In this document: positions 60,001 to 63,000 of the stretch, piece after piece | Layout: each line of letters begins with the position of its first letter | Position numbering within the stretch: the stretch's first letter is position 1 | Origin: Escherichia coli | Lineage (GTDB): Bacteria; Pseudomonadota; Gammaproteobacteria; Enterobacterales; Enterobacteriaceae | Length of the DNA stretch: 64,000 bases | Strand: one strand, 5' to 3' | Assembly: GCF_001677475.2 (NCBI RefSeq) | Contig: NZ_CP012498.1 | Program-made: the position numbers

Positions 60001-63000
60001 GGCTGCAGGGCAAAATTGCTGATGCTGTGAAAGAAAAAGGGTATCAGGTGGTGACTTCTCCGGATAAAGCCTACTACTGGATTCAGGCGAATGTGCTGAA
60101 GGCCGATAAGATGGATCTGCGGGAGTCTCAGGGATGGCTGAACCGTGGTTATGAAGGCGCAGCTGTTGGTGCAGCATTAGGTGCCGGTATTACCGGATAT
60201 AACTCCAATTCTGCCGGTGCCACACTCGGTGTAGGCCTTGCTGCTGGTCTGGTGGGTATGGCTGCAGATGCAATGGTGGAAGATGTGAACTATACCATGA
60301 TCACGGATGTGCAGATTGCAGAGCGTACTAAGGCAACGGTGACAACGGATAATATTGCCGCTCTTCGTCAGGGCACATCAGGTGAGAAAATTCAGACCAG
60401 TACTGAAACGGGTAACCAGCATAAATACCAGACCCGGGTGGTCTCAAATGCGAACAAGGTTAACCTGAAATTTGAAGAGGCGAAACCTGTTCTCGAAGAC
60501 CAGTTGGCCAAATCAATTGCTAATATATTGTAATTTAGGATGAGACTGGATAAAGCTGTACCAGTCTCATATAAATTCCCTATTATGGCATTAAGGGGGT
60601 AGTCGTGTTAATCAGAAAATGTATAGTGTTATTAATTTGTTTTCTCATTCAGGGATGCATAAGTACAGAAGTATCTGAAGGAGCTTTATATAAATATAAA
60701 AATAAACATGTAAGAGAATTTTTGTCCGATCAGATAATGTATAATATTCATAATGAGAATTATAATTATATCACCCGCACTGGAGGTTCTGATACTTATT
60801 TTTTATATACTCCAGCTTTGTTTGTTGATAAACAGGTTGCAGCACCATCGGTGAATGTTGAAAACTTATGTATTATAAGCGGAGGGCAAGGTCGAATTAA
60901 GAAATTTACGGCTGATACTTTTATTGAATCAGGCTATAAAGTTGCTAAAGCCTTTCGTGATATGGGATTGTATGCTCATTTCGGAGCATATGAAGCATTC
61001 AGGGATTCTTATCAGAGTTTTGAAGAGCAAAAAGTTGCGTATAGATTTCAAACGAAAAAGCTGGATGAGCATATAAAAAGAGGTTATTTCTTTGATGACT
61101 TTTCCTGTGTTGTTAATGGAAAAACAATATGGTCGCTTTCAATTGAACCAGTCGCTGTTGATAAGGATTCATCAGATGTTGACCAGATATGGATGCTTAT
61201 GACGGTTAATAGCTGATCTTTAGGGATAAAACTAAATAGCGTCAAGAGAATATTATCCGTGGCTGGGATGACTGGCCTCCTGACTGACGCCTCGCGTTGC
61301 TCGTTGTCCAACCCCGGGAAGTAACAAAATAAATTTTGTCGCTTCCCGGCGTTTCCGAAATAAATATGAGAACACTGAACGGTTGTGCAAATTCTTTGTG
61401 CGACCGTGAAGTGTTGCCGGCGAAGCCGGGATCTTCCGGAGAAAGTCATTATGACATCAGACAATATCGCTGAATATGTTGGTGAGAATAATCAATTTAC
61501 TGAGAAGCCTGTAACTGAATCCCCCCCGGGATACAGGATAATACAGCGACCACTAAAGACTATCTGTACAGCAATAATATTGATACTGACCTTTTAGTGG
61601 TTATCGGAGGGCTTATTGTTATATTGTTTCTCATGATGCTTGTCATGTACTTTATTAATTCTCTCAGGTATAAGGAATTAACTGAAATACTGACAAAAAT
61701 ATCTTTTCCTGAGAAATCCGGGAGCAATCCGCTTAAGCCGGAAGAGGGCCGCTGTAATTTGTTGTCCCTGTGTGTGCTGGCCCCGGTATTCTGTACTCCC
61801 AAAAAGCTGGCAGAAGTCTCCAGACAGATCATCGTGACCAGTGCGCAGGAAATTGCCTGGACGCCCGGGAATAGCCGTATTGATGGTGAGCAGGAAGAAA
61901 ATATTACCTGGTCTCTGTCGTCACAGACTCATGCCGATAAATACGAGCTCATCAATAAAACGTCCCGTGTATCTCCTGACAGTGGCCACTTTTATGAACC
62001 GGGCACGGCTCTGGATTATCGTGAACGGATACGCCTTTTTGTTCAGATCCAGTATTCACACGAGAGTGACTGGTCTGAAATATTGCGCCTGACTGATATC
62101 GTGCTGGAAAAAGTTTCTTCCGGCAGGCCAGCAGGCGGCTATCACCACCGGTATACAGGGTATACATGGTATACATGGTATACATGGTTTGTTCTGTGAA
62201 TGCATTCCACACCGCTCTTTTCTGCTCTGTTCCTGACTTTCCCGGAGTTTCATCATGAGTTTTAACGCAAAGGATATGACCCAGGGCGGTCAGATTGCGT
62301 CCATGCGTATCCGCATGTTCAGCCAGATCGCCAATATCATGCTTTACTGCCTGTTCATTTTTTTCTGGATCCTCGTTGGTCTGGTTTTATGGGTAAAACT
62401 AAGCTGGCAGACGTTTGTGAACGGCTGTATTTACTGGTGGTGCACCACGCTGGAAGGCATGCGGGATTTAATCAGGTCCCAGCCGGTCTATGAGATCCAG
62501 TATTACGGCAAAACCTTCCGGATGAACGCGGCTCAGGTACTGCATGATAAATATATGATCTGGTGCGGTGAGCAGCTATGGTCCGCATTCGTTCTGGCCA
62601 CTATTGTGGCCCTGGTTATCTGCCTGATCACCTTCTTTGTTGTCTCCTGGATTCTGGGGCGTCAGGGTAAACAACAGAGCGAAAATGAAGTCACAGGTGG
62701 TCGTCAGCTGACAGACAACCCGAAGGACGTTGCCCGGATGCTGAAAAAAGACGGCAAGGACTCCGATATCCGGATTGGCGACCTGCCGATTATCCGGGAT
62801 TCCGAAATCCAGAACTTCTGTCTGCACGGCACGGTCGGGGCCGGTAAGTCGGAAGTTATCCGTCGTCTGGCCAACTACGCCCGTCAGCGTGGTGATATGG
62901 TGGTGATTTATGACCGATCAGGGGAATTTGTTAAAAGTTACTATGACCCGTCCATTGATAAGATCCTGAATCCGCTGGATGCCCGCTGTGCCGCCTGGGA

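Follow-up and report, generated by a model that had tools for sequence, protein, structure and literature searches.

A horizontally acquired lipoprotein gene and a frameshifted yhfA between traT and traD of an F-like transfer region in Escherichia coli

Introduction

Exclusion systems decide which plasmids enter a cell that already bears one, and they thereby shape the spread of resistance and virulence plasmids. In F-type plasmids, exclusion is thought to rest on TraS and TraT, and the product of traG is the donor-side target of entry exclusion. Simple-sequence contingency loci, i.e. phase- or antigenic-variable repeats, are known for example from Neisseria and Haemophilus.

A new exclusion lipoprotein, Sfx of IncC plasmids, was found only in 2024 (PMC11493245). 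Sfx is an orphan outer-membrane lipoprotein of IncC/IncA plasmids (286 aa, encoded beside traN on IncA/IncC-group plasmids) which has been shown to be a surface-exclusion factor; it is constitutively expressed and acts in the recipient, with a specificity set by the donor adhesin TraN (PMC11493245). Between traT and traD, R100 carries a conserved hypothetical ORF named YhfA, whose presence at this place is the usual state in R100-type plasmids (PMC2762410). Our literature searches, which covered the genes of the traT-traD interval and the lipoprotein described below, turned up no other mention; the YhfA name also appears in UniRef.

Here we analyse the traT-traD interval of an E. coli contig (NZ_CP012498.1, assembly GCF_001677475.2), using as our window a stretch of 64,000 nucleotides. 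A sequence-only reading had described this interval as an insert of three ORFs with potential for variation. We find that two accessory genes, not three, make up the interval, which is ordinary overall and offers one modest lead, a lipoprotein gene.

Results and Discussion

Gene content of the traT-traD interval

The features on which the analysis relies are as follows.

56429-59251, plus strand: traG, mating-pair stabilisation, left landmark of the exclusion region (940-aa ORF; TraG is annotated in pCFSAN004180G, 98% identical)
59267-59770, plus strand: gene at the traS position, 167 aa, multi-hydrophobic and AT-rich (36-39% GC), recognised as an ORF
59802-60533, plus strand: traT, surface-exclusion outer-membrane lipoprotein (243-aa ORF; TraT is annotated in relatives)
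60534-61260, plus strand: AT-rich cassette of ~727 bp (homology with F- and R100-type spacers restarts at ~61261)
60540-60570, plus strand: 10-bp inverted repeat (repeat search and RNA fold)
60605-61216, plus strand: lipoprotein gene, 203 aa, intact (ORF, lipobox and dN/dS)
61261-61432, plus strand: non-coding block of ~170 bp with a long hairpin at 61310-61353 (PLSDB matches and fold)
61451-62199, plus strand: probable yhfA pseudogene, with a 5' fragment at 61451-61597 and a 3' fragment at 61597-62199 (alignment to the intact ORF of pSTEC17_183-a)
61520-61531, plus strand: yhfA frameshift site, including the C7 run at 61521-61527 (alignment with relatives)
62150-62188, plus strand: 9-bp tandem repeat (Tandem Repeats Finder)
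62255-64000, plus strand: traD, coupling protein, right landmark (ORF from the ATG at 62255, extending past the window end; TraD is annotated in relatives)

The traT stop codon and the traD ATG are separated by 1,721 bp, in agreement with the ~1.7 kb first estimated. The expectation that traD directly follows traT is correct for F-type plasmids, as the spacer is only 252 bp long in pL65-2 and one other plasmid of this type, but it is not the sole norm, since R100-type plasmids carry yhfA there. The interval as a whole is not an insert: only its first ~727 bp (60534-61260) are uncommon, and the rest is the normal R100-type arrangement, shared by ~1,800-1,900 PLSDB plasmids, R100 included. Taken together, the interval is most probably a cassette with an intact lipoprotein gene placed ahead of a frameshifted yhfA. 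The gene at the traS position has homologues which PGAP names either "surface exclusion protein" or "hypothetical protein", and an NCBIfam search with it gave no match.

The cassette has a GC content of 33.5% (local range 28-36%), against 47.6% for the whole window, and lies after the traT stop codon and before the conserved traT-distal hairpins. Spacer comparison shows F- and R100-type plasmids without it, while pO86A1 carries the same cassette, also 71 bp after traT, but no yhfA. The AT-rich cassette is a horizontal acquisition. A repeat search revealed no convincing direct or inverted terminal repeats of the kind that would flank it as transposon-like ends. At its left end, just past traT, positions 60540-60570 form a perfect 10-bp inverted repeat (ATGAGACTGG N11 CCAGTCTCAT) without a U-tail, and the RNA fold of 60530-60604 reaches -23.7 kcal/mol (z = -3.4); such a strong hairpin could terminate or attenuate transcription, which would speak against co-transcription of the lipoprotein gene with traT.

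Downstream of the cassette, the segment 61261-62255 is matched by 3,781 PLSDB records, and those without yhfA match only the 61261-61432 block, which follows traT across F-like plasmids generally. Its hairpin at 61310-61353 folds at -25 kcal/mol (z = -4.85), and the block is probably the traT terminator or processing region together with the upstream leader of yhfA. No Rfam family was detected in 60400-62400 at E <= 1, and scans for promoter and terminator consensus sequences returned scores no better than those of shuffled sequence.

The lipoprotein gene and its family

The ORF at 60605-61216 starts with GTG, is preceded by the Shine-Dalgarno sequence AAGGGGG and encodes a protein with the N-terminus MLIRKCIVLLICFLIQGC. 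Its signal peptide, MLIRKCIVLLICFLIQG|C, has Lys/Arg at positions 4-5 and a lipobox, LIQG|C, ending at Cys18. We tested for the lipobox with the pattern [LIVMFWSTAG]2-[LIVMFYSTAGCQ]-[AGS]-C (PROSITE PS51257 type), requiring the Cys to lie at 15-35, after a basic region and a hydrophobic core. The pattern was found in the window ORF and in all 17 family members examined, the distant ones carrying the classical LSGC, MAGC and LFGC, and the family profile shows that the N-terminal signal is kept in homologues down to E = 4e-5. In these features, the ORF is a genuine lipoprotein gene, and its first description as an AT-rich lipoprotein holds. Under the Lol sorting rule, lipoproteins with a residue other than Asp at position +2 go to the outer membrane. 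The +2 residue is Ile in the window protein, and Asp is found at +2 in none of the 17 family members; this rule, taken alone, supports a predicted sorting to the outer membrane.

Estimates of dN/dS are 0.21-0.25 for the lipoprotein, 0.22-0.33 for yhfA, 0.04-0.06 for traT and 0.01-0.03 for traD. By these values both the lipoprotein gene and yhfA are real genes, and the lipoprotein family is under purifying selection. The protein has no significant match in Pfam, NCBIfam, PADLOC, PHROGs or PDB sequences. Its AlphaFold2 model (pLDDT 73) is a small alpha/beta domain, for which a fold search gave no informative match. When 1.84 billion representatives were searched in depth with a profile of the aligned lipoproteins, only 14 clusters were retrieved, so that the family is genuinely small, and the protein is a member of a small orphan family. 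Annotation of this family does not go beyond "hypothetical protein", and RefSeq often calls the gene too short (159 aa, with the signal peptide missing); the full 203 aa are annotated in a Shigella dysenteriae plasmid. An unrelated 230-aa lipoprotein at another locus (L021) was considered as a family relative and rejected (hhalign probability 4%).

Genomic contexts and possible roles of the lipoprotein

By tblastn, the lipoprotein gene is present in 85 PLSDB plasmids from six genera, with hosts including Escherichia, Shigella, Salmonella, Klebsiella and Providencia, and 80 of the 85 plasmids are predicted to be conjugative. Closer relatives (35-90% identity) lie within traG-traD in nine of the ten F-type plasmid contexts inspected, in five arrangements. 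The gene follows traT in the window and in pO86A1, sits between traS and traT in a Salmonella contig, and in two lineages (L009 and L010-L013) directly follows traG, at the usual place of traS and with no traS-like ORF; it also occurs in the tra region of a Providencia, and the part of that region which we inspected shows no TraT. The tenth context places it beside traM on an F-like plasmid. Two other relatives lie outside traG-traD, one among hypothetical genes of a large Photobacterium plasmid and one in a chromosomal-looking, fimbria-adjacent context. The suggestion that the gene had been acquired next to exclusion genes is therefore borne out, most of the relatives inspected being located between traG and traD beside traS or traT.

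Because most relatives inspected adjoin traS/traT within traG-traD, it is reasonable to suppose a role at the surface or in exclusion. The traS/traT unit is constitutively expressed, and the lipoprotein gene, which lies downstream of traT and upstream of the terminator-like hairpins, would most likely be co-transcribed with it. Its product would then be lipidated and Lol-sorted to the outer membrane of the cell that bears the plasmid, where it would serve as a further factor in exclusion or mating-pair discrimination, resembling TraT or Sfx. Gene position and predicted localisation point only tentatively to such an exclusion or mating-discrimination role. With a traS-like gene and traT already in the window, this plasmid has no evident need of one more exclusion factor.

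The strongest competing explanation is that the lipoprotein is unrelated cargo (a "moron") carried in a permissive slot, with no role in conjugation or exclusion, and serving for example in envelope protection, serum or phage resistance, immunity or a host-specific function. We consider this somewhat unlikely. Hitch-hiking alone is hard to fit to the relatives of 49-90% identity, all of which, among those inspected, are on F-type conjugative plasmids, in five arrangements within traG-traD, nor does it readily fit the two lineages in which the gene occupies the exact place of an absent traS. A more specific proposal is that the lipoprotein is an unrecognised F-type exclusion determinant, a third one beside TraS and TraT and able to replace either, which, by analogy with Sfx of IncC plasmids, would act in the recipient outer membrane against a surface component of the donor, for example TraN or TraG. 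The traS position in two lineages and the Providencia region in which TraT was not found argue for such a stand-in, which is conceivable but doubtful. As a largely unannotated family spread over dozens of plasmids, the gene is a cheap candidate for exclusion testing.

Probable decay of yhfA

Alignment with intact copies shows that the sequence-only reading took the two halves of one gene, yhfA, for a "small ORF" with a C7 homopolymer and a separate "200-aa membrane protein", so that the insert had been credited with one gene too many. In pSTEC17_183-a this DNA forms a single uninterrupted ORF of 243 aa, and restoring one T in silico in the window yields a 249-aa ORF, 86% identical to the R100 ORF over 240 aa. 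Homology extends over the full length, and the ORF is immediately upstream of traD, with 56 bp between them. Intact products, of 243-245 aa, have an acidic N-terminal part, a single transmembrane helix at residues 47-70 (bitopic) and a conserved C-terminal domain ending ...GYTW; the 200-aa ORF was rightly called a membrane protein, as the family has this single helix, but it is the 3' half of yhfA, not a separate gene. With R100 YhfA (NC_002134, 75462-76199), the window copy shares the place immediately upstream of traD, the CNLLSLCVLAPVFC motif, the membrane-spanning helix and a tail of the form ...HHR(H/Y)TGYTW. It differs in being frameshifted at codon 24-27, in having 4 repeat units instead of 2, and in its C-terminus, FVL (pSTEC type) as against SVSVN in R100.

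We detected yhfA in 1,933 PLSDB records, 1,795 of them at a coverage of at least 80%, and in a 60-row sample spread over these matches almost all full-length ones are single and uninterrupted. A second F-like plasmid has a distant homologue after traT (29% identity, E = 1e-27), whose last residues are again GYTW. Searches of Pfam, NCBIfam, PADLOC, PHROGs and PDB sequences with YhfA, and family searches with the 86-aa ORF of pSTEC, gave no significant match, and the YhfA structure model, with a pLDDT of 43.5, was unusable. Intact in roughly 1,800 plasmids, with distant homologues and no function assigned, yhfA represents a small separate gap in F-plasmid biology.

In the window, the gene is not an uninterrupted ORF. 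A 1-nt deficit at 61520-61531 leaves a 5' fragment of 48 codons (ATG 61451 to TAG 61597) and a 3' fragment of 200 codons (GTG 61597 to 62199). The window reads TCCCCCCCGG-GAT where intact yhfA reads TACCCCCCGGTGAT, or, at the frameshift site itself, TCCCCCCCGGGA versus TACCCCCCGGTGA. The C7 homopolymer at 61521-61527, correctly noted beforehand, was made by an A>C change, and the frame is lost through one missing neighbouring T. Close relatives are damaged in other ways: pCFSAN004180G has also lost one nucleotide at this site, but not the same one, and pRHB35-C09_2 is in frame at the C-tract but carries TGG>TAG downstream. Four close relatives thus show three different lesions, and the allele lacking the A is found on 228 contigs. 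As one relative is broken by a nonsense codon elsewhere in the gene, we read these lesions as gene decay, not switching, and on this comparison of sequences the window copy of yhfA is very probably a decaying pseudogene. Its dN/dS relative to the nearest intact copy is 0.46, a value drawn from only 13 changes, too few to be informative.

Could the frameshift, and possibly the 4-unit repeat too, be assembly or sequencing artefacts, the real plasmid having an intact yhfA with 2 or 4 units? The lesion does lie beside a homopolymer and the window differs from its closest relatives exactly there, the exact 200-aa product is missing from a collection of 15 billion proteins, and among data assembled from reads there are many frameshifted yhfA variants, each seen once, that resemble sequencing errors. 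An artefact is nevertheless improbable, since the frame is lost at this site in the closest relatives too, which come from several complete assemblies made independently, and since the window departs from them by two base changes, where a miscounted homopolymer would be the simple error; sequencing errors do not typically add 18 bp in tandem, and independent assemblies contain a comparable allele.

It is still less probable that yhfA continues to be expressed, either as two polypeptides through termination-reinitiation at UAGUG (61595-61599) or as one through -1 ribosomal or transcriptional slippage on C7 GGG. This would make sense of the one-nucleotide overlap between the stop codon of the 5' fragment and the GTG of the 3' fragment, of the 200 codons over which the latter stays open, and of a frameshift located on a homopolymer. 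However, GTG 61597 has no Shine-Dalgarno sequence, a start there would fall inside the transmembrane helix and leave out the N-terminal 49 residues, neither a stimulatory structure nor a canonical slippery heptamer was identified, and sister plasmids carry other inactivating lesions, one of them a nonsense codon.

The 9-bp repeat and the C-tract

Tandem Repeats Finder reports 4.3 copies of a 9-bp unit at 62150-62188 (96% match); the sequence-only reading had noted it as GTATACAKG x4. The array consists of GGTATACAG x1 and GGTATACAT x3, which in translation give YTG-YTW-YTW-YTW at the C-terminal end of ORF 61597-62199. In three relatives aligned here the repeat is shorter by 18 bp, and every full-length match listed, in PLSDB and in complete E. 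coli genomes, spans 2 units. Scoring repeat number by the match identity expected with a third copy and by listed spans, we found no 3- or 4-unit repeat among 1,888 PLSDB records or, within 5,426 complete E. coli genomes, among the 41 records that matched. The only exception found besides the window is an independent 4-unit allele (P0133/L021), in which the other unit was expanded and the gene is intact; no 3-unit allele was seen in the surveys. Scanning the species genomes of GTDB and the metagenomes of JGI for patterns of at least 3 units gave 67 loci, none of them yhfA by tblastn, and all were rejected as unrelated collagen-like Gly-X-Y repeats.

The second 4-copy allele shows that the repeat can change copy number in frame, as proposed. 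The potential for variation ascribed to it is not supported: in the collections surveyed the repeat is largely invariant in number, so that copy number does not often differ among close relatives, and a 9-bp unit keeps the frame, with no switching of frame or promoter by tract length. The 4-unit repeat of the window is in all likelihood a neutral, private slippage event from 2 units and not a variation mechanism. Nor does the C-tract behave as a length-variable switch, being C6 in intact and broken relatives alike, the latter having adjacent point lesions or a nonsense codon elsewhere.

The idea that the interval is a variable surface module, in which a membrane protein related to exclusion would be varied or switched by contingency loci, namely the 9-bp repeat and the C7 tract, draws on a coding repeat with a unit multiple of 3, on the two independent 4-unit expansions and on two different 1-nt lesions at the C-tract in close relatives, but it is highly improbable, as the surveyed matches are at 2-unit identity, C7 arose by substitution with the frame lost through the neighbouring T, a third relative was inactivated elsewhere in the gene, which points to decay, and the expanded allele of the window lies in an already broken gene. 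With the contingency loci of Neisseria and Haemophilus, the window shares a short tandem repeat and a homopolymer inside an envelope-protein gene; it differs in a copy number fixed at 2 in surveyed homologues, in the C6 of intact genes and in decay-like lesions. Apart from the lipoprotein gene, the finding is thus mainly a correction: what looked like three ORFs with variable tracts includes an ordinary yhfA, probably decayed in this plasmid lineage.

Comparison with known exclusion systems

Like TraT (PF05818), the new protein is a predicted lipoprotein that has a residue other than Asp at +2; its gene, too, lies in the exclusion region between traG and traD, beside mating-pair genes, and is probably expressed in the plasmid-bearing cell. 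The protein nevertheless has no sequence or profile similarity to TraT, and its predicted fold differs, with no TraT-like match. Membership of the TraT family was rejected for lack of a Pfam or NCBIfam match, the true traT being the neighbour at 59802-60533.

TraS is likewise encoded by an AT-rich gene, and the lipoprotein gene takes its place after traG in two lineages. In contrast to the new protein, TraS is a polytopic inner-membrane protein and not a lipoprotein; the two have no sequence similarity, and the window has both genes.

A further parallel is Sfx. Homology between the two was judged unlikely from the restricted spread of the tblastn matches (85 plasmids, six genera). Both are orphan lipoproteins unrelated to TraT and encoded inside a conjugative transfer region, and by this analogy Sfx offers a working model of how the new lipoprotein could act.

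Organization of the traT-traD interval

At its 3' end the window covers distal genes of an F-like tra operon. Its nearest public relatives, with 98.2% identity to the window over 24 kb, are IncFIA/FIB plasmids of 215-225 kb from bovine or food E. coli and 'Escherichia sp.' isolates; the window's own plasmid is absent from the plasmid collection surveyed (PLSDB) and from the complete E. coli genome set.

Features of the window discussed here
21114-21190, 25725-25873, 29337-29413 and 31485-31634, minus strand: group II intron matches (Rfam)
56429-59251, plus strand: traG (ORF)
59267-59770, plus strand: traS-position gene (ORF)
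59802-60533, plus strand: traT (ORF)
60605-61216, plus strand: lipoprotein gene, here LIPO (GTG start, Shine-Dalgarno AAGGGGG, protein beginning MLIRKCIVLLICFLIQGC)
61261-61432, plus strand: non-coding hairpin block of about 170 bp, following traT and downstream of the LIPO cassette
61451-62199, plus strand: split copy of yhfA (psi-yhfA)
from 62255, plus strand: traD (ORF)

A sequence-only reading had taken traD to follow traT directly in F and noted about 1.7 kb between them here; the F-type spacer is indeed only 252 bp, and the distance in the window is 1,721 bp. It also correctly placed an AT-rich ORF at 60605-61216 (203 codons, 28-36% GC against 47.6% for the whole window), a C7 tract at 61521-61527 and a 9-bp repeat (4.3 copies, 62150-62188, encoding YTG-YTW-YTW-YTW). 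Its parsing into three ORFs is wrong, as the interval consists of a lipoprotein cassette and then a yhfA pseudogene whose repeat has undergone a private expansion.

The hairpin block contains a 21-nt imperfect inverted repeat at 61310-61353 (stem-loop 61314-61349; fold -25 kcal/mol, z = -4.85), belongs to no Rfam family and is probably a terminator or processing region of traT. All 3,781 PLSDB records matching 61261-62255 are consistent with having it, and those without yhfA match this block only.

Upstream of the tra region, Rfam detects two group II introns on the minus strand. Both are matched at domains 1-4 and at domain 5/6, with ORFs of 503 and 555 codons in between. FinP antisense RNA, the traJ 5' UTR and, within traG, the Rfam 'AS-traG' antisense RNA are present (36581-36690, 57148-57233), all standard F-like regulatory RNAs. 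In the window's closest relatives, the traD-traI interval contains an inserted vapBC pair (PIN toxin / MazE-type antitoxin) on the opposite strand (L001 6857-7482, L021 9022-9647); the window stops before the corresponding point.

A broken copy of a widespread gene

As a conserved hypothetical gene, yhfA is familiar from R100-type plasmids: the R100 traT-traD ORF, which has no equivalent in F, was named YhfA in the pEntH10407 paper (PMC2762410), and UniRef uses the same name. We found yhfA-like sequence in 1,933 PLSDB records (1,795 at >=80% coverage), and full-length matches were nearly all single uninterrupted pieces in a spread sample of 60. Pairwise dN/dS between lineages is 0.22-0.33. A distant homologue, a 230-aa ORF downstream of traT on a divergent F-like plasmid (L009 9636-10328; 29% identity, E = 1e-27), shares the PG-SRIDG-QE--TW motif and a C-terminal GYTW with YhfA. 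As a word-indexed protein search did not pick it up, the family extends beyond E. coli-type plasmids. Plasmid spread, dN/dS and the distant homologue together establish yhfA as a real, widespread accessory gene. Its product has an acidic N-terminus and one strongly hydrophobic segment (residues 47-70), without a match in Pfam, NCBIfam, PADLOC or PDB; the AlphaFold2 model is unusable (pLDDT 43.5).

When the traT-traD interval was aligned against three related plasmids, the 'small ORF' and '200-aa protein' merged into one gene, since a single 243-aa ORF of pSTEC17_183-a covers the stretch whose ATG and stop correspond to 61451 and 62199 in the window. At the frameshift site the window reads TCCCCCCCGG-GAT and the intact pSTEC17_183-a gene TACCCCCCGGTGAT; the C7 run arises by an A>C substitution, and one T is missing beside it. 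Translation therefore stops at the TAG at 61595-61597, leaving 200 codons in a different frame. Putting the T back in silico yields a 249-aa protein 86% identical to the R100 ORF. In the window's own lineage yhfA is probably decaying: the window's lesion is private in this alignment, pCFSAN004180G-type plasmids lack the A ahead of the C-tract (an allele on 228 contigs), and pRHB35-C09_2 has a TGG>TAG nonsense codon.

The repeat and the C-tract had been credited with a potential for variation, a claim that the surveys largely contradict. A 196-bp probe across the repeat would match a three-copy allele at about 95% identity; none of the 1,888 matching PLSDB records reached that value, and the full-length places listed all fell 17-18 nt short of probe length, which corresponds to two units. 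One subgroup was 29 nt below, and the member inspected still has two units, with an additional deletion downstream of the repeat. Among 5,426 complete E. coli genomes, 41 plasmid records matched the probe, with the same outcome, and full-length tblastn matches to yhfA all span 726 nt. Scanning species-representative genomes and JGI metagenomes for at least three units returned only unrelated collagen-like repeats. In-frame change of copy number does occur, but rarely: a cluster look-up recovered an intact 249-aa variant (P0133, 4 contigs) with YTG-YTG-YTG-YTW, an independent event because the other unit (YTG) expanded there, so slippage is possible and tolerated. The window's own expansion is located in a gene already inactivated. 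The contingency-locus reading fails its defining tests; neither the repeat nor the C-tract acts as a variation device. The GYTW tail conserved in the distant homologue suggests selection on the peptide motif itself.

The LIPO cassette

Homology with F-type and R100-type spacers restarts at about 61261, where those plasmids have the GC-rich hairpin that comes after the traT stop; the 727 bp at 60534-61260 are therefore an insert. This cassette holds one gene, LIPO, and its own perfect 10-bp hairpin (60540-60570). dS between the window and pHN7A8 is 0.19 for traT and 0.31 for yhfA, whereas between the window and pSTEC17_183-a it is 1.03 and 0.03, respectively (L002 and L004 compared). These values point to recombination between traT and yhfA, with a breakpoint at or close to the cassette.

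RefSeq/PGAP often annotates LIPO as 159 aa only, from an internal ATG (window 60737-61216; L001 3204-3683; L014 8001-8480), which drops the signal peptide and lipobox. Both the N-terminal signal peptide and the ...QGC(I)(S/T)T lipobox are kept in homologues of 49-90% identity, and distant members have classical lipoboxes. The upstream start is conserved (GTG 60605 in the window, ATG at L014 7876); the Salmonella copy has one in frame, and in a Shigella dysenteriae plasmid the RefSeq annotation covers all 203 aa. These observations support the longer ORF and indicate that the 159-aa annotation is a systematic N-terminal mis-call. Asp never occurs at +2, so that the Lol rule predicts outer-membrane sorting. 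LIPO dN/dS is 0.21-0.25. The family is tiny (14 clusters in a profile search of 1.84 billion representatives), with no relative in Pfam, NCBIfam, PADLOC, PHROG or PDB, and its moderately confident predicted model (pLDDT 73, pTM 0.75) has no informative structural neighbour.

LIPO occurs in 85 PLSDB plasmids, 80 of them predicted conjugative, from Escherichia, Shigella, Salmonella, Klebsiella, Providencia and Photobacterium.

Gene orders around LIPO
Window and close kin: traG - traS - traT - LIPO - psi-yhfA - traD
pO86A1, a K. pneumoniae plasmid: traG - traS - traT - LIPO - traD, without yhfA
Shigella dysenteriae plasmid: LIPO at the same spacing before traD (incomplete gene table, listing nothing between traG and LIPO)
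Salmonella: traG - traS - LIPO - traT - traD
L009: traG - LIPO - traT, no space for traS
Metagenomic loci L010-L013: traG - LIPO - traT - traR - ... - traD, no traS-like ORF
Providencia: traG - TraS-like - LIPO - 130 aa - traD, no TraT in the stretch examined

A 171-kb Providencia rettgeri plasmid (NZ_CP086258.1) has two copies (the second at 11253-11864), each apparently within its own F-type tra segment (traG - 180 aa - LIPO - 130 aa), one of them partly degraded. Further relatives adjoin traM in an F-like plasmid, lie on a large Photobacterium plasmid, or belong to a fimbria-adjacent contig.

The slot after traT looks like a hotspot for small cargo. Between traT and the hairpin block, pSTEC17_183-a (L002 2740-3000) has an unrelated 86-aa ORF (MNRAESRLSQVLFLLGYDSEKYPEH...) with no family match; in L021 the slot holds a different 230-aa lipoprotein, unrelated to LIPO. 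In L021 (4559-5730) and L022, which have the intact 4-unit yhfA allele, the traS/traT positions are taken by a 103-aa ORF on the minus strand and an unrelated lipoprotein of 230-262 aa (MDIKKNIIIVFATTLLGGCGS...), with no TraT domain detected there; these may be another uncharacterised exclusion-region gene set.

Possible role of LIPO and comparison with known systems

Expression of the traS/traT unit does not depend on the main tra promoter, as the older F and R100 literature describes. Lying between traT and the hairpin block, the cassette would most plausibly ride on this transcription unit, and its predicted product would be an outer-membrane lipoprotein of the plasmid-bearing cell. The main rival to an exclusion role, that LIPO is unrelated envelope cargo, is only slightly less probable. 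Published plasmids such as pO86A1 carry LIPO, but it is unstudied, and the literature yielded nothing on it. Its main value is the consistent association of an orphan family with the F-type exclusion region.

By sequence LIPO is no homologue of TraT or TraS, nor of Sfx, a recently described lipoprotein of IncC plasmids (PMC11493245), judging in the latter case from its tblastn range (85 plasmids, six genera). The location and expression logic proposed for LIPO are nevertheless those of both TraT and Sfx (PMC11493245). Added to the positional evidence, this parallel favours accessory exclusion or mating-pair discrimination as our best single hypothesis, which we advance tentatively; if LIPO works as proposed, it would join the known class of exclusion lipoproteins as a new member.
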